Source of the DNA: Ekhidna sp. | Lineage (GTDB): Bacteria > Bacteroidota > Bacteroidia > Cytophagales > Cyclobacteriaceae | Direction: 5' to 3' | DNA length: 64,000 bases | Assembly: GCF_964218185.1 (NCBI RefSeq) | Contig: NZ_CAXPLV010000012.1 | Coordinates: forward strand, 9,034-73,033 | Position numbers and translations under genes: made by a program | Part shown: positions 14,550 through 19,764 of the stretch, in pieces | How the letters are laid out: each line of letters starts with the position of its first letter | Position numbering within the stretch: position 1 is the first letter of the stretch | Notes under the pieces: model-generated | Database searches by the model: none | What the model saw: the letters and a program-made list of their open reading frames with translations, nothing else | Told to the model about the DNA's origin: nothing

Positions 14550-15164
14550 TCAATCAACAACACTAAAGCCAATATGAATATTTCCGGTCTCCTTATCAAC
14601 ATATAGTGTTCGATCTTTTTTGGTTCCATCGCAGGTGGTTGGTGAACATAAATATGAGCCTCCGGCAAGCCTGATCATACCTTCTTTTGTGGTAGTTGTG
14701 ATGTCCCAGACATTGCCAAGCACATTTACATGCTTCGCCTCAGAAATGGGTTGTTTATCACCTGAATTAATTCTTCGGTTATCTTCTTTGACTAAAAGCC
14801 AATATTCATCATAGTTTGGAAGCTTTCGGCCGGACCACTTACAATATGCCCTGGCATCATTGTAGCTTATTTGCGTCACGGGAAATGCTTTTGATTTCGG
14901 TTCATTAAAGCCATCAGGCTTTCTCCATGTTGCACCTTCTACTTTCCTGAAATTATATACATCAACCTGGACTATTGACCAGCCGTATTTTTCAGCATCC
15001 GTCACGTACCCTGTTTCATTAATGAATGTTTCAAATTGTTCAATCGTAACTGTTCTAAGTCTGTTGGTTTCACTGCACGAAAATTGAATGGACAGGCATA
15101 TTATTGTTGGAAGTAGGTATTTAATATGACCATTCTGACTGGTGAACTTCTGAAATAATTCCAT
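14550..15164 (-). CDS. Formylglycine-generating enzyme (SUMF1/FGE-sulfatase) domain protein, short form
   Basis: VTIEQFETFINETGYVTDAEKYGWS, GATWRKPDG, PVTQISYNDARAYCKWSGRKLP, LGNVWD and GGSYLCSPTTC. Confidence 0.8.
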   Translation of the reverse strand: MELFQKFTSQNGHIKYLLPTIICLSIQFSCSETNRLRTVTIEQFETFINETGYVTDAEKYGWSIVQVDVYNFRKVEGATWRKPDGFNEPKSKAFPVTQISYNDARAYCKWSGRKLPNYDEYWLLVKEDNRRINSGDKQPISEAKHVNVLGNVWDITTTTKEGMIRLAGGSYLCSPTTCDGTKKDRTLYVDKETGNIHIGFSVVD

Positions 15165-15899
15165 CTAATCTGATATTGCTATTCGAGTTGTAACTCCTAA
15201 AAGAATACTGAATCCGGACAAGTCCAGATTTCCCTTATGAATAGGAACAATAAAATTATCTCTGCCTAAATCAACTTCATTATAAGGAGAAGGAGTTGGT
15301 TCCCCAATATCTGAATAAAGCCAATTGTACTCACTTTTGACTGCTATAGATAAATTGTTGTTTATTGATTTGGATAAGACTAATGATACATTGTAACCTA
15401 AATCAATGTCCTCATATTTGGAGTCATATTGTGTTGAAATCCAGTTTTCACTGTTTTGATCATATGTCAATTTAGCACCTTCTTGGTTGGCCACTGCATA
15501 ATGTAATAGAAGGCCTACTCCACATCTTAATTCCATATCCTTATTAAGCATCAACCTATAAGATGGTGAAATAAAATAGGTGGAATAGTTGAGGTTTACC
15601 CCATACTTTATTCGGGGATCTACATGTTCTATCCACCCAAATTGATTTGTGACATGGTGAAACTTGAAACCAGATTGAATAAATAAATTACTTTCAGATT
15701 TTAAGTAAATATTTGCTGAAAGTTCTGCGGAAAAAGCATTCCTAATGGGGTTCATATCCAAAATATCCTCCCATTCATTGATAGGGTCAATATTCATAAA
15801 TTGATTTCCAATGAATAGGTTTAATTCTTTGATTTGGGCATTCGCATTAAAGCCTAGCAAAAGACCTAGCGAAATGAGAATGTTTATAATGTTTTTCAA
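15165..15899 (-). CDS. Outer membrane beta-barrel (porin/PorT-like) protein
   Basis: Signal peptide ending ANAQ, alternating amphipathic beta strands; visibly AT-rich. Confidence 0.55.
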   Translation of the reverse strand: MKNIINILISLGLLLGFNANAQIKELNLFIGNQFMNIDPINEWEDILDMNPIRNAFSAELSANIYLKSESNLFIQSGFKFHHVTNQFGWIEHVDPRIKYGVNLNYSTYFISPSYRLMLNKDMELRCGVGLLLHYAVANQEGAKLTYDQNSENWISTQYDSKYEDIDLGYNVSLVLSKSINNNLSIAVKSEYNWLYSDIGEPTPSPYNEVDLGRDNFIVPIHKGNLDLSGFSILLGVTTRIAISD

Positions 15900-16000: not shown

Positions 16001-17125
16001 TTATAATGTGCCTCGCAGCTCTTGCTCTCGCTCCAGTGCTTCAAACAGAGCCTTGAAGTTTCCTTTTCCGAAGGAGGTAGCTCCCTTTCGCTGGATGATC
16101 TCAAAGAACATGGTAGGACGTGCCTGCACCGTCTTAGTAAAGATTTGTAGCAGGTAGCCTTCATCGTCACGGTCTACCAGAATACCCAGAGGTCTCAGGG
16201 CGTCTATGTCTTCATCTATTTTTCCTACACGCTCTGTCAGCACATCATAGTAGGTGTCTGGCACCTGAAGAAATTCTACGCCTCTGTTTTTAAGATCAGT
16301 TACCGTCTGGATGATATTGTCAGTAGCCACGGCAATGTGCTGCACTCCAGCACCTTCATAAAACTCCAGATATTCATCTACTTGTGATTTTTTCAGTCCA
16401 GCCGCCGGCTCATTGATAGGGAATTTGATCCTTCCATTGCCATTGCTCATCACCTTGCTCATGAGTGCCGTGTATTTTGTGGAAATGTCTTTGTCATCGA
16501 AAGACATGATCTGCTTAAAGCCCATCACTTCTTCATAGAACTTCACATACTTATCCATGTCGCCAAGTTCTACGTTACCCACCATGTGGTCTACATATTT
16601 CAATCCAACCGGCTTAGGGTTGTATTCGGTTTTCCATTCCCGATAGCCCGGAAGGAAAATACCATTGTAATCTTTTCTTTCGATGAAAATATGCACCACT
16701 TCACCGTACGTATGGATTCCTGACTGTACCACTTTTCCATGCTTGTCTTCAATGGTATTTGGTTCCATGAAGGACTTAGCGCCTCTTTTCACGGCCTCAT
16801 TGTAGGCATGGGTCGCATCGTCCACCCATAGTGCCGTTACTTTTACTCCATCGCCATGTTTGTCAATGTGTTGACCAATTGCGGTACCACTTCTTAGCGG
16901 TGAGGTCAGAACCAATCTGATTTTGTCCTGAACAACCACATAAGACTCCCGGTCTTTGATCCCTGTTTCCAGACCGGCGTAAGCAAGCGATTGGAATCCA
17001 AATGCTGACTTGTAAAAGTGTGCGGCTTGCTTGGCATTGCTCACATATAGTTCAAGATAGTCCGTGCCATTGATTGGCATGAAGTCCTTTTCTTGTGCAT
17101 CGGGTGCTAGTGCAGTGCGTTCCAT
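16001..17125 (-). CDS. hppD: 4-hydroxyphenylpyruvate dioxygenase
   Basis: DHMVGNV, IKFPINEP, GVQHIAVATD, LLQIFTK and FFEIIQRKGATSFGKGNFKALFEALEREQELRG. Confidence 0.97.
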   Translation of the reverse strand: MERTALAPDAQEKDFMPINGTDYLELYVSNAKQAAHFYKSAFGFQSLAYAGLETGIKDRESYVVVQDKIRLVLTSPLRSGTAIGQHIDKHGDGVKVTALWVDDATHAYNEAVKRGAKSFMEPNTIEDKHGKVVQSGIHTYGEVVHIFIERKDYNGIFLPGYREWKTEYNPKPVGLKYVDHMVGNVELGDMDKYVKFYEEVMGFKQIMSFDDKDISTKYTALMSKVMSNGNGRIKFPINEPAAGLKKSQVDEYLEFYEGAGVQHIAVATDNIIQTVTDLKNRGVEFLQVPDTYYDVLTERVGKIDEDIDALRPLGILVDRDDEGYLLQIFTKTVQARPTMFFEIIQRKGATSFGKGNFKALFEALEREQELRGTL

Positions 17126-17214: not shown

Positions 17215-18342
17215 TTACTTTTTATAATCTTTATTAAACGCTGCGTGACCGCTGAGGATTCGGTTATTTTCTTCCAGATCTGGTTCCATGGACCAATTGT
17301 TCTTTTCTGAAGTACCTCCTAAGATGATACCATCTTTTCGTGGAAACATATACAAAAGATCGTTGCTCGAAAGATCCACATATCCGTAGTTGATTTCTTC
17401 CTGAGGAAGCAATACGGTTAATTGTCCCTTGACGGGGATTAATTCAGAATCCTTAAATAAGTGATGAGAACCCAGTCCGGTGCAGTTCATAATGGAGTTT
17501 TCATTTAGCTCCATCAACTCCTCTGTATTGTTAAACCTCTTAATGGTAAGCTTACCGCCCAATTGAAAGAAATCATCGAGCAATGCTTTTAGATAAATGG
17601 GAGGTTCAATAAGCAAGGAATGTAGCTCCTCGGGTTTGCCTATGGACTGAAAGGGTGAAGTTTCAGGTGTATGTTTTTTATAATCCGGATATAGGTTTTT
17701 TCCACCGGGAAAATCGAAAGGAACGCCTGAAAAGAAGGTTTTCATCCACCGGACCCCATAACGAGCGCCCACTAAGTCCTGGAACATGCGGTGTGAAATA
17801 GTGGAAGCTTGATTAAAAGTGGTTATGAAATCCTGATTAACGATTGCGGAATCATACACGGAAACAGGCGCCCAAAAAGCAGCTGCAACATTAGAGGTGG
17901 TGTTGGGAGGTAGCTTCTCAGTGTAAATTGTCACCGGAATCCCTCTTTTCAGCAACAGGATTGCGGTGGAAAGACCGATAACACCTGATCCAAGAACAGC
18001 CACCGGTTCACCTGAGTCCAGCATCTCAATGGCCAGTCTGGCTGTACCCCAGGATAGCGATATTCCGCCACCTCCATGTCCGTAATTATGGATTACAGTC
18101 TTATGATCTAGTTTTTGGACTTTTAGATTGAAACCTGATGGTCGATATGGCCGCAACCCAACGACCTGGCGAATGATTCTTTCTTCAGAAACCTTTACTG
18201 GATTTAATCGGGTATAGGGTGATTGATTTCTCTCAAAAGCGAAAGAAAAATCCGGTATCCCCAAGGTGGAGGCATACAATCCTGCAGCTCCTATTTTTTT
18301 AATGAAACCTCTTCGGCTATCAGCATGTTTTGTGGTATCCAT
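17215..18342 (-). CDS. Tat-exported FAD-dependent oxidoreductase, D-amino-acid oxidase family (circularly permuted motif order)
   Basis: SRRGFIKK twin-arginine signal from ATG 18342; GLRP, HNYGHGGGG, GSGVIG, TTSNVAAA, NCTGLG and PVKGQ motifs. Confidence 0.85.
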   Translation of the reverse strand: MDTTKHADSRRGFIKKIGAAGLYASTLGIPDFSFAFERNQSPYTRLNPVKVSEERIIRQVVGLRPYRPSGFNLKVQKLDHKTVIHNYGHGGGGISLSWGTARLAIEMLDSGEPVAVLGSGVIGLSTAILLLKRGIPVTIYTEKLPPNTTSNVAAAFWAPVSVYDSAIVNQDFITTFNQASTISHRMFQDLVGARYGVRWMKTFFSGVPFDFPGGKNLYPDYKKHTPETSPFQSIGKPEELHSLLIEPPIYLKALLDDFFQLGGKLTIKRFNNTEELMELNENSIMNCTGLGSHHLFKDSELIPVKGQLTVLLPQEEINYGYVDLSSNDLLYMFPRKDGIILGGTSEKNNWSMEPDLEENNRILSGHAAFNKDYKK

Positions 18343-18402: not shown

Positions 18403-19764
18403 ATGCAAGCGATAAATCCGGCTACCGAGCAACCACTAAAAAATTACCCCAATCATTCAAATGAGGAAGTTACCAGCACGATTGATCAGGCTCAGAAAGC
18501 TTTTACAGAATGGAGGAATACTTCCTATTCGAATCGGGCAGATTTAATGAGAAAAGCAGCTGAAGTATTGAGAACGCAGCAAAAGAGTTTTGCTGCAATC
18601 ATGACGGAAGAGATGGGTAAGACATTAAAGGAGAGTAAGGCGGAAGTGGAGAAGTGTGCATGGGTGTGTGACTATTATGCAGACCATGCAGAAGAGTTTC
18701 TGAAAGATGAATTCATTGAAACAGATGCTTCCAAATGTTACGTGAGTCATCGCCCGTTGGGGATAGTGTTCGCGATTATGCCCTGGAACTATCCGTTTTG
18801 GCAGGTGTTTCGTTTTGCAGCTCCGGGATTGATGGCCGGAAATGTAGCGATCCTTAAGCATGCACCTAATGTGCCAGGATGTGCGGAGGCTATTCTCTCC
18901 GTTTTTGAAAAGGCCGGATTTCCAAAAGGGGTCTTTAGTAATCTATTCATAACAAATGAACAGGCCTCTGATGTAATAGCTCACAGATATGTAAAGGCTG
19001 TCACATTAACGGGAAGTACGCGAGCCGGGAAGGAGGTAGCTAAACAAGCAGGAGCTGTGCTGAAGAAGTGTGTGTTGGAGCTAGGTGGAAGTGATCCATA
19101 TATCATCCTGGAGGATGCAGATCTGGATTTAGCTATTGAAACCACAGTAGCCAGTCGGCTAAAGAATAGTGGGCAGAGCTGCATCAGTGCGAAGCGCTTT
19201 ATCGTTCCGGAATCAATTAAGGAAGAGGTAGAGCAACGGCTGATAAAAGAAATGGGATCATATAGTTTCGGTGATCCAACAGATGAAAATACTGATCTGG
19301 GTCCGTTGGTGGGGGAGAAGTATCGAGATCAATTACACGATCAAGTGAAAAGAACCATCGAGGCAGGGGCAAAGTGCATTTTAGGAGGAGAGGTGCCAGA
19401 TATGAAAGGATATTATTATCCTCCTACTATTCTTACCAATGTGAAGAAAGGTATGCCAGCCTATGAGGAGGAGCTCTTCGGGCCAGTGGCAACCGTCATT
19501 ACGGTAAAAGATGAAGAAGAGGCTTTGAAAGTAGCCAATGATACTTATTACGGTTTGGGTGGAGCCATCTTTTCCAAAGATGTTGCCAGGGCTGAGAGGC
19601 TGGCTGCAGAAAAGCTAGAAGCTGGTTCCTGCTTTGTGAATGCGATGGTTTCTTCTGATCCCAGGTTACCGTTCGGCGGAATCAATGAAAGTGGATTCGG
19701 AAGGGAGCTATCACACCACGGCATCAAGGAGTTTGTGAATGTGAAGACAGTTTATGTAAGGTGA
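18403..19764 (+). CDS. NAD(P)-dependent succinate-semialdehyde dehydrogenase (Sad/GabD-like aldehyde dehydrogenase)
   Basis: IMPWNYPFWQVFRF, LKHAPN, TLTGSTRAG, LELGGSDP, GQSCISAKR and EELFGPV. Confidence 0.92.
   Translation: MQAINPATEQPLKNYPNHSNEEVTSTIDQAQKAFTEWRNTSYSNRADLMRKAAEVLRTQQKSFAAIMTEEMGKTLKESKAEVEKCAWVCDYYADHAEEFLKDEFIETDASKCYVSHRPLGIVFAIMPWNYPFWQVFRFAAPGLMAGNVAILKHAPNVPGCAEAILSVFEKAGFPKGVFSNLFITNEQASDVIAHRYVKAVTLTGSTRAGKEVAKQAGAVLKKCVLELGGSDPYIILEDADLDLAIETTVASRLKNSGQSCISAKRFIVPESIKEEVEQRLIKEMGSYSFGDPTDENTDLGPLVGEKYRDQLHDQVKRTIEAGAKCILGGEVPDMKGYYYPPTILTNVKKGMPAYEEELFGPVATVITVKDEEEALKVANDTYYGLGGAIFSKDVARAERLAAEKLEAGSCFVNAMVSSDPRLPFGGINESGFGRELSHHGIKEFVNVKTVYVR

Follow-up and report, generated by a model that had tools for sequence, protein, structure and literature searches.

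A circularly permuted flavoprotein of the D-amino-acid-oxidase/D-aspartate-oxidase family with a predicted Tat signal in Ekhidna sp.

Introduction

D-amino-acid oxidase (DAAO) has served for decades as a mechanistic model and is a drug target as well as a biocatalyst for the production of cephalosporin and keto acids. To our knowledge, all characterised DAAOs and D-aspartate oxidases (DDOs) are intracellular. A gene on the minus strand of the 64,000-nucleotide stretch of Ekhidna sp. DNA analysed here (the window) raises the question of whether the chain of these enzymes also occurs in nature with its two ends exchanged and placed behind an export signal, and what such a protein would do. We consider it likely that the product of this gene (P0001) is an FAD-dependent amino-acid oxidase of the DAAO/DDO family with a circularly permuted chain, an assessment that includes the rest of the mechanism proposed below.

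Results and Discussion

Reading frame, start codon and domain layout

The reading frame at 17215-18342 on the minus strand is single and uninterrupted and encodes 375 amino acids. The N-terminal half of the translated protein carries, in this order, M1, S8-R-R-G-F-I-K15, G62-L-R-P65, H85-N-Y-G-H-G-G-G-G93 and W98-G99, and the later part contains G118-S-G-V-I-G123, the tail GIILGGTSEKNNWSMEPD and then KK near the end. The first-pass annotation of this DNA had placed GLRP at residues 62-65, followed by the HNYGHGG segment and by GSGVIG at 118-123, and these positions are exact in the translation. All 36 aligned homologous sequences start 6-10 residues ahead of the RR pair. The alternative start codon TTG 18432 was rejected, as the longer frame would run into the divergently oriented aldehyde dehydrogenase gene, which starts at 18403. 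For these two reasons ATG 18342 is taken as the correct start. The features of the gene and its product are as follows.

17215..18342, minus strand: coding sequence of the permuted DAAO/DDO-family flavoprotein (P0001), 375 aa plus stop, ATG at 18342
18241..18342, minus strand: predicted Tat signal peptide, aa 1-34, with n-region SRRGFIK and h-region IGAAGLYASTLGI
18298-18321, minus strand: SRRGFIK, aa 8-15, twin-arginine motif in the n-region
18211..18240, minus strand: linker from signal peptide to folded domain, aa 35-44, variable in length and sequence in the 36-homologue alignment, pLDDT <50 up to residue 41
18022..18210, minus strand: transposed segment, aa 45-107, homologous to canonical DAAO/DDO ~265-330
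18148-18159, minus strand: GLRP within the transposed segment, R64 corresponding to DAAO Arg283
aa 83-101, minus strand: VIHNYGHGGGGISLSWGTA within the transposed segment, G91 corresponding to Gly313
18004..18021, minus strand: new junction LDSGEP, aa 108-113, between the two homologous pieces, variable in the 36-homologue alignment
17218..18003, minus strand: core, aa 114-375, homologous to canonical 3-~265
17974-17991, minus strand: Rossmann motif GSGVIG, aa 118-123, inside the core

Further motifs of the core are TTSNVAA, NCTGLG, GQL, Y331 (corresponding to DAAO Tyr228) and LGGT. Through the six-residue junction, what was the C-terminal helix now leads into Rossmann strand 1, once N-terminal. 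The chain of P0001 ends at the point where the canonical chain would run on into the transposed segment (~264).

Evidence for circular permutation

A phmmer search against the PDB aligned residues 113-368 of P0001 with chain positions 14-269 of human D-aspartate oxidase 6rkf (i-E 4.5e-26) and residues 57-107 with positions 280-333 of the same chain (i-E 5.3e-8), and this two-piece swapped pattern recurred for every DAAO structure. Two HSPs in swapped order were likewise returned by BLASTP against each of 11 canonical-order relatives. The core HSP covered residues 114-364 and canonical 3-250 (E 1e-35 to 1e-43), and the transposed HSP covered residues 46-110 and canonical 263-330 (36-51% identity, E 1e-9 to 1e-18). 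Judged by these alignments, the swapped order lies well outside what chance would produce, and the predicted protein is a clean circular permutation in which residues 114-366 correspond to canonical 3-263 and residues 45-110 to canonical 263-330, with nothing duplicated or lost. The Pfam DAO model PF01266 scored 95 bits (cut-off 27.9) and, being colinear, matched in three separate stretches. The colinear order of DAAO/DDO enzymes, with the Rossmann motif N-terminal and GxRP/HxYGHGG C-terminal, is reversed in P0001, which is therefore a permuted variant and not an ordinary member of the family.

The AlphaFold model of P0001 forms a single domain with a mean pLDDT of 84.5 and a pTM of 0.82. The transposed N-terminal segment was modelled as strand-strand-strand-helix with pLDDT 90-96, leading directly into Rossmann strand 1, and residues 1-41 were modelled as unstructured or helical with low pLDDT. 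The modelled Rossmann beta-alpha-beta unit consists of strand 114-117, helix 121-132 and strand 137-141, so that its motif is internal and not N-terminal. The best 33 PDB matches of the model in a Foldseek search were all DAAO or DDO (probability 1.00, E 1e-16 to 1e-13). The Foldseek alignments are order-dependent (sequential) and covered only ~270-295 columns at TM 0.55-0.71, hence the model points to the three-dimensional fold of DAAO/DDO for the sequentially alignable core only. The two-piece matches, the family-wide order described below and the confident AlphaFold model with DAAO and DDO as best matches support the proposal of the first-pass annotation that a DAO/DDO-type enzyme has here undergone natural circular permutation.

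Distribution and origin of the permuted form

The permuted order was found in 244 of 269 fetched homologues; seven were canonical and 18 were without one or both motifs, some of these being short fragments. All 88 genome loci carried the permuted order as well. They come from at least six phyla, among them Acidobacteriota, Pseudomonadota, Verrucomicrobiota, Gemmatimonadota, Eremiobacterota and Bacteroidota. The family comprises thousands of 90%-identity clusters, and its best 150 hits fall into more than 120 clusters at 50% identity. It figures prominently in Acidobacteriota, in Alpha- and Gammaproteobacteria and in some Bacteroidota. Of 300 other sampled genomes belonging to the window's phylum, 16 carried the canonical form, and the permuted form was found in none.

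In the textbook account, circular permutants arise when a duplicated gene is truncated at both ends, therefore partial duplicates could exist somewhere, and a swapped order could in principle also reflect an assembly error, two gene fragments fused with a frameshift or a tandem duplicate in decay. The probability that we assign to such an artefact is close to nil. Against it stand not only the uninterrupted frame and the confident, compact predicted model, but also the recurrence of the same order, at 45-71% identity and with invariant catalytic residues, in hundreds of independent assemblies from different phyla. The C-terminal motif was never present twice in any of the 269 proteins, and no duplication intermediate with this motif at both ends was found among them. 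The artefact reading is already refuted by this family-wide conservation.

In a free quick tree search, four permuted sequences with Sec signals lay outside a clade in which six canonical sequences were included as well. This topology is not read as a sign of two origins of the permutation, because the tree constrained to hold all permuted sequences as one clade has the higher likelihood (+25 lnL over the free quick search, AU p 0.775). A single origin of the permuted form is compatible with the tree and is not rejected.

Conservation of catalytic and FAD-binding residues

Residue conservation was counted over 147 permuted and 11 canonical sequences. R64, P65, R67, H85, Y87-G91, G93, W98 and G99 are conserved in at least 93% of the permuted sequences (R64 and G91 in 99%) and present in 11 of 11 canonical ones, and the glycines G118, G120 and G123 of GxGxxG occur in 100% of both groups. 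Arg64, His85, Tyr87-Gly91, the GxGxxG glycines and Ser150 are the same residue in the permuted and the canonical group, as are Asn286, Cys287 and Gly289 (NCTG), Gly306, Gln307 and Arg335. The position of Y331 is occupied by Tyr in 122 of the 147 permuted sequences.

In the phmmer alignments with PDB chains, R64, Y331 and G91 align with Arg283, Tyr228 and Gly313 of DAAO. Arg283 and Tyr228 form the clamp for the substrate alpha-carboxylate of DAAO, and Gly313 lies in the flavin-contacting HxYGHGGxG loop; the DAO signature around HNYGHGG is matched by P0001, too. At the putative catalytic and FAD-binding positions, the alignments show the permuted proteins to agree with their canonical relatives. 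The side-chain pocket is variable or unlike DAAO/DDO at positions 156 (Q/L/V/F), 158 (S/A/G) and 345 (F/Y/H/S), and the lid Tyr224 of DAAO is without an equivalent.

Predicted export by the Tat pathway

The alignment of 36 homologues revealed R10, R11 and F13 as invariant. An RR motif is located 66-94 residues ahead of HxYGHGG at 86 of the 88 genome loci, and at about 40 of the 88 an RR motif is combined with a lipobox. The Tat-signal model TIGR01409 was matched by 21 of the 36 family members at E <= 0.05 (best 7e-4), with P0001 itself just under the cut-off (14.3 bits vs 16.7, E 0.04). Genes of the Tat translocase are present in the genome, with TatC at 223 bits and TatA at 68 bits (TatA/B/E family). 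Along with the near-consensus SRRGFIK motif and the mildly hydrophobic h-region behind it, these observations support the Tat export signal that had earlier been suggested for this protein.

The signal peptide of P0001 has no lipobox cysteine, and its sequence, judged by eye, makes cleavage by signal peptidase I after FSFA34 likely. According to the mechanism that we propose, FAD would be bound and the fold completed in the cytoplasm, after which the folded predicted protein would be exported by the Tat system and its signal cut after about residue 34 to leave a soluble enzyme in the periplasm. In other phyla, many relatives possess a lipobox and would instead be lipid-anchored.

Gene neighbourhood

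Clustering of the flanking ORFs of 88 loci and examination of seven diverse homologues revealed no conserved gene partner beyond lineage-level synteny, which extended to at most 7 loci. One ORF cluster spanning 13 loci was rejected as a partner; it consists of antisense ORFs over the gene in high-GC genomes and is an artefact.

The order ALDH - permuted gene - HPPD is present in Ekhidna lutea as well and absent in Zobellia, Aureivirga, Shewanella and metagenomic contigs. We do not take the downstream HPPD gene to indicate a functional connection with D-Tyr or D-Phe. A TAnnTTTG motif lies 34 nt ahead of the HPPD start; its 43 occurrences in the window, against 52 expected, amount to no enrichment. 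No terminator on the minus strand was found to separate the permuted gene from HPPD.

Substrate and electron acceptor

The predicted enzyme would oxidise D-amino acids of environmental or peptidoglycan origin in the periplasm to 2-oxo acids and ammonia. The electrons would most likely pass to O2, yielding H2O2, because the gene is without a conserved redox partner. Both substrate and electron acceptor are points that we infer, since neither a conserved gene neighbour nor a characterised member of the family was found. The nature of the acceptor bears on an alternative in which the permuted exported fold is a dehydrogenase that passes electrons from D-amino acids to periplasmic cytochrome c or quinone, feeding respiration with no H2O2 formed. 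Production of H2O2 in the periplasm is costly, roughly every second relative is predicted to be a lipoprotein and thus membrane-proximal, and the next gene encodes a cytochrome-c domain (CxxCH) at two of 75 loci (L026 and L028, both Pseudomonadales). However, no cytochrome c or other redox partner was found near the gene in the window or in 73 of the 75 loci, and the closest characterised relatives, DAAO and DDO, are true oxidases. Furthermore, a peroxiredoxin-type Redoxin protein is the neighbour in five Pseudohongiella-type loci, which would suit the production of H2O2. A dehydrogenase is in our estimation improbable, and an oxidase remains the preferred reading.

Another alternative keeps the fold and the location and replaces the free D-amino acid by a different physiological substrate, such as glycine, sarcosine, an opine-like or N-substituted amino acid, the D-terminus of a muropeptide or a D-2-hydroxy acid. 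The variable pocket positions 156, 158 and 345 would allow for this, the best NCBIfam matches of P0001 are glycine oxidase ThiO and D-amino-acid dehydrogenase (all below cut-off), and the gene context gives no pointer to D-amino-acid catabolism. These points are countered by the nearest solved structures, which in sequence are DDO and DAAO at E 1e-37 to 1e-16 vs at least 1e-3 elsewhere, and which in Foldseek reach 1e-16 vs 1e-8 for glycine and sarcosine oxidases. The conserved alpha-carboxylate clamp (Arg64, Tyr331) and Gly91 loop likewise count against a different substrate, which we regard as unlikely. Within D-amino-acid oxidation, a DDO-like acidic specificity was considered. Arg216 and Arg237 (human DDO numbering) confer the specificity of DDO for acidic substrates by binding the side-chain carboxylate. 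Arg216 aligns with L324, where the family has mostly a gap, G or P, and Arg237 with S345, where the family has F/Y/H/S/A; acidic specificity was rejected because equivalents of both arginines are missing.

The permuted proteins may, in a broader and rather speculative interpretation that we hold to be doubtful, constitute a widespread and hitherto unrecognised system by which soil and marine bacteria oxidise D-amino acids in the periplasm, with the permutation as the enabling step for export. In this interpretation the permutation would have moved the buried N-terminal Rossmann strand off the signal peptide, which would explain the near-perfect linkage between permutation and export signal. 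If this interpretation is true, D-amino acids from the environment, from peptidoglycan or released by competitors would be destroyed or harvested outside the cytoplasm. Oxidation of D-amino acids in the periplasm would bear on their turnover in soil and sea and on peptidoglycan recycling, as well as on bacterial competition by means of D-amino acids or H2O2.

Previous reports, annotation and significance

The literature searched, including the review PMC4699246, yielded no account of a DAAO that is permuted or exported by Tat, and no enzymatic, localisation or structural experiment on a family member was found. Proteins released by Asaia bogorensis have been reported to include a 'D-amino acid oxidase' (A0A060QKK3) in a study of its secretome (PMC12502724). 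With an Acetobacteraceae family member as query, no Asaia entry was found among the 120 best hits. In databases, members of the family go under no more specific name than 'FAD-dependent oxidoreductase' or 'D-amino-acid oxidase', and all curated NCBIfam models stay below their cut-offs; thus, the annotation conceals both the rearrangement and the location. As a natural permutant, the protein indicates that the fold tolerates termini at canonical ~264 and a short link joining the old termini, and such tolerated termini would be useful for the engineering of DAAO fusions, sensors and split enzymes.

Comparison with known systems

The ThiO and DadA proteins (TIGR02352, NF001933, NF009074) belong to the same DAO superfamily (PF01266), and their sub-threshold matches show the same split, with the C-terminal positions 347-403 of the DadA-type model aligning with residues 50-108 of P0001. 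The scores of these models against P0001 were 77 bits vs a cut-off of 250.8 and 26.5 bits vs a cut-off of 494, and the structural matches reached E 1e-8 and TM ~0.5.

Uncharacterised DAAO-like bacterial proteins of canonical order (L002, L004, L005 and L007 from Bacteroidota, and the cluster representatives P0197, P0205, P0210, P0218, P0222, P0231 and P0248) are the nearest outgroups in the tree. Their identity with P0001 is 30-36% in the core and 36-51% in the transposed segment, and they have the same conserved residue set, including Arg at the equivalent of position 335 in 11 of 11. In contrast to P0001, these proteins of 318-344 aa are colinear, with the Rossmann motif at residues 7-15 and no signal peptide.

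DAAO (EC 1.4.3.3; human 2du8, pig 1kif/1an9, Rhodotorula 1c0i, Rasamsonia 7ct4) has the same fold, with TM up to 0.71 on the ~270-295 columns that can be aligned sequentially. Relative to DAAO, the breakpoint of P0001 falls between canonical ~263 and 265, and the canonical C-terminal tail is replaced by the 6-residue linker. DAAO is peroxisomal or cytosolic, whereas P0001 is predicted to be exported and has no equivalent of the lid Tyr224.

Human D-aspartate oxidase (DDO/DASPO, EC 1.4.3.1, 6rkf) is the best sequence match among solved structures, with a whole-sequence E of 1.9e-37. It shares GxGxxG, TTS(D/N)VAA, NCTG, GQ, G-L-R-P-Y-R-P and H-x-Y-G-H-G-G-G-I-S with P0001 residue for residue, and its Tyr223 and Arg278 correspond to Y331 and R64. 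DDO is colinear, with the Rossmann motif at ~5 and GLRP/GHGG at 275-315, and is peroxisomal and without a signal peptide, whereas in P0001, predicted to be exported, the last ~65 residues come first, behind the Tat signal.

Chain order of the permuted oxidase relative

The frame at 17215-18342 on the minus strand is uninterrupted and yields a protein of 375 residues on translation (P0001, the D-amino-acid oxidase (DAAO) relative of the window). It lies between two genes:

18403-19764, plus strand, aldehyde dehydrogenase, divergent, 60 nt upstream
16001-17125, minus strand, 4-hydroxyphenylpyruvate dioxygenase (HPPD), 89 nt downstream, same strand as the permuted gene

Translation placed every motif of the first-pass annotation where it had been reported:

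S8-R-R-G-F-I-K15, twin-arginine motif at the N-terminus
G62-L-R-P65, ahead of the Rossmann motif
H85-N-Y-G-H-G-G-G-G93, followed by ISLSWG
G118-S-G-V-I-G123, Rossmann motif, internal
GIILGGTSEKNNWSMEPD, close to the C-terminal end

The start codon is ATG 18342, because homologues always begin a few residues ahead of the RR pair and the frame from TTG 18432 overlaps the aldehyde dehydrogenase gene. The latter start was rejected, as the longer frame would run into this divergent gene, which starts at 18403.

A phmmer search of all PDB chains revealed D-aspartate oxidase (DDO) 6rkf as the top match of P0001 (E 1.9e-37), followed by 16 DAAO/DDO sequences, nearly all of them matched as two stretches. 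Residues 113-368 matched the N-terminal ~255 residues of the DAAO/DDO structures, and residues 45/57-107 matched C-terminal residues 265/280-333 (i-E 5e-8 for DDO and 3e-5 for DAAO). Against human DAAO, residues 114-366 correspond to 3-263 and residues 45-106 to 265-328, which indicates a clean breakpoint with no loss or duplication; a six-residue linker (108-113) stands in place of the canonical C-terminal tail. All 11 canonical-order relatives (four from Bacteroidota genomes and seven cluster representatives) gave two BLASTP HSPs against P0001 in swapped order, the smaller permuted piece being 36-51% identical to them. Judged from sequence, P0001 is a circular permutation of the DAAO/DDO chain, a case as strong as can be made at this level, and the permutation proposed in the first-pass annotation is supported by two swapped-order pieces against both the structures and the canonical relatives.

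An AlphaFold2 model built from a 36-sequence alignment reached a mean pLDDT of 84.5 and a pTM of 0.82, with pLDDT below 50 confined to residues 1-12 and 21-41. The transposed segment (residues 45-107) was modelled at pLDDT 90-96 as three strands (56-66, 72-78 and 81-87) and a helix (97-106), which leads directly to the Rossmann strand 114-117 and helix 121-132. The canonical DAAO C-terminus has the same strand-strand-strand-helix order, and the transposed segment may well take up the canonical position in the fold. The 33 best structural matches of the model in the PDB by Foldseek were all DAAO or DDO (E 1e-16 to 1e-13), followed by glycine and sarcosine oxidases at ~1e-8. Target-normalised TM scores were at most 0.71 across ~270-295 columns, since the aligner depends on sequence order and covers only that much of a permuted protein.

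Predicted export

The export by the Tat pathway that had been claimed for P0001 was borne out as a prediction by several lines of evidence. R10, R11 and F13 do not vary across the 36 aligned sequences, and an RR-x-hydrophobic motif lies 66-94 residues ahead of HxYGHGG in 86 of 88 loci, a count that includes one wrongly picked upstream RR. The Tat-signal model TIGR01409 matched 21 of 36 family members at E <= 0.05, P0001 itself scoring slightly below the cut-off (14.3 versus 16.7 bits), and both TatC and TatA are encoded in the window's genome. The Tat pathway suits proteins that need FAD bound before crossing the membrane. About 40 of the 86 RR-bearing loci also show a lipobox-like cysteine, as called by our own regular expression. 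P0001 has no lipobox and, once its signal peptide is cut, probably after FSFA34 as judged by eye, would be soluble in the periplasm.

Size, spread and origin of the permuted family

The word-indexed search returned at least 7999 matches to P0001 among 8000 scored candidates, the best 120 of them with 86-100% query coverage, 45-71% identity and a length of ~375 aa; when representatives at 50% identity were searched exhaustively, 403 proteins reached E <= 1e-30. Among 269 fetched homologues 244 were permuted, seven were canonical and 18, including some short fragments, were without one or both motifs; none carried a duplicate C-terminal motif at both chain ends. A genome scan confirmed at least 588 relatives in species-representative genomes, and all 88 examined loci (80 of these relatives and eight from contig look-ups) were permuted. 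They were drawn from Acidobacteriota (Pyrinomonadaceae, Vicinamibacteria, Blastocatellia, Bryobacterales, Acidobacteriaceae), Gamma-, Alpha- and Betaproteobacteria, Verrucomicrobiota, Gemmatimonadota, Eremiobacterota, a Dadabacteria MAG and Bacteroidota. Inside the window's own phylum the permuted gene is patchy: 300 further genomes sampled there held the canonical form only, in 16 genomes, and none of eight same-family genomes had a match. Carriers named in the phylum among the matches listed are Ekhidna, the closest of them (66-71% identity), Zobellia, Aureivirga and Chryseolinea. From this, the organism of the window is probably related to Ekhidna (Cytophagales, Reichenbachiellaceae).

In 13 high-GC genomes (L029, L036, L038, L045, L048, L050 and others), long antisense ORFs overlie the permuted gene. 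They group together in all-against-all BLAST and are a composition artefact by which naive gene callers could be misled.

For the tree, the transposed piece was shifted back in silico in 70 permuted sequences, which were combined with 11 canonical ones and two outgroups, other DAO-family proteins of the window's genome. The unconstrained quick tree needed two state changes. Constraining all permuted sequences together raised the log-likelihood by 25 units over this free tree (AU p 0.775), so that a single permutation event is compatible with the data and slightly preferred, to be read with caution as the root depends on two very long outgroup branches. The deepest permuted branches of the quick tree were four cluster representatives (P0219, P0244, P0196 and P0254), all permuted and all missing the RR motif. 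The first three have a Sec-like N-terminus, e.g., a short basic n-region and then a strongly hydrophobic stretch, and this subgroup is predicted to carry a Sec-type signal. P0254 begins almost at the transposed segment itself and is probably 5'-truncated.

A copy labelled Shewanella sp. OPT22 (P0080, locus L015, GCA_004168585.1) falls within the family's Bacteroidota clade. Its neighbours in the tree are the Zobellia copy and the window/Ekhidna pair; in the alignment it seems nearest to the copy of Aureivirga. It is 54% identical to P0001, above most proteobacterial members. These observations point to horizontal transfer, or else to mislabelling or contamination of the assembly.

Gene neighbourhood

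Ekhidna lutea has the same trio of aldehyde dehydrogenase, permuted gene and HPPD, plus the MacB/FtsX permease; the trio was not seen in the more distant carriers examined, and clustering of all flanking ORFs from the 88 loci found no neighbour common beyond close relatives. A gene that stands alone in this way would suit an oxidase that is self-sufficient and uses O2. The neighbours seen in other carriers were:

L026:5189-6544 and L028:5526-6914 (Pseudomonadales), plus strand, cytochrome-c-domain proteins of 451-462 aa, following the permuted gene
L064:5361-5909, minus strand, peroxiredoxin-type Redoxin/AhpC-TSA protein beside the permuted gene
L014:7218-7643, minus strand, RidA-family (Ribonuc_L-PSP) imine deaminase
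L014:371-2086, plus strand, Amidohydro_3 protein
L014:10489-12192, minus strand, gamma-glutamyl transpeptidase

The cytochrome-c-domain proteins, which combine a single CxxCH cytochrome-c domain with a weak match to the Cu2 monooxygenase C-terminal domain, adjoin the permuted gene in two of 75 loci, and coupling to cytochrome c is rare among the loci examined. Equivalents of the Redoxin neighbour occur in L073, L076, L079 and L085, five Pseudohongiella-like loci in all. These two kinds of neighbour might point to the handling of H2O2 or to electron transfer, confined to the Pseudohongiella and Pseudomonadales lineage.

In Zobellia sp. B3R18 (L014) the RidA-family gene flanks the permuted gene and the other two lie in its vicinity; in L017, Amidohydro_1, Amidohydro_2 and peptidase M28 genes are found upstream. 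Both settings hint weakly at the processing of amino acids or peptides, in an arrangement that is not conserved. In the window, the HPPD gene and an ORF with an FGE-sulfatase domain (14550-15164) enclose a 244-aa ORF (15165-15899, minus strand) that has no Pfam match at E <= 1e-3.

Relation to known D-amino-acid oxidases

Neither full-text searches, in a collection with few subscription journals, nor a review (PMC4699246) revealed a DAAO described as permuted or Tat-exported, and no NCBIfam model reached its cut-off on P0001 or the family members tested. Databases name the permuted proteins 'FAD-dependent oxidoreductase' or 'D-amino-acid oxidase'. A 'D-amino acid oxidase' is among the released proteins in a secretome study of Asaia bogorensis (PMC12502724) and is, by its name, a possible member of the permuted family; no Asaia entry stood among the 120 best matches of an Acetobacteraceae member. 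P0001 is a natural permutant, apparently not described before, of a classic enzyme, and its very large, predicted exported family has no assigned substrate.

The Arg residues that give DDO its specificity for acidic substrates are not conserved in the permuted family, and the side-chain pocket positions are variable across it. A function of P0001 as a periplasmic D-amino-acid oxidase is plausible as a prediction. Columns at least 90% conserved in 147 permuted sequences are occupied by identical residues in the 11 canonical sequences:

GLRP region: G62, R64, P65, R67
HxYGHGG region: H85, Y87, G88, H89, G90, G91, G93, W98, G99
Core: three GxGxxG glycines, S150, N286, C287, G289, G306, Q307, R335, G342

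No residue conserved in the permuted group alone was found in this comparison, and the permuted family appears to keep the enzyme chemistry of its canonical relatives with the chain re-threaded. By alignment, R64 of P0001 corresponds to the carboxylate-binding Arg283 of DAAO and G91 to its Gly313, and Y331, a position held by Tyr in 122 of the 147 permuted sequences, corresponds to Tyr228 of DAAO and Tyr223 of DDO.
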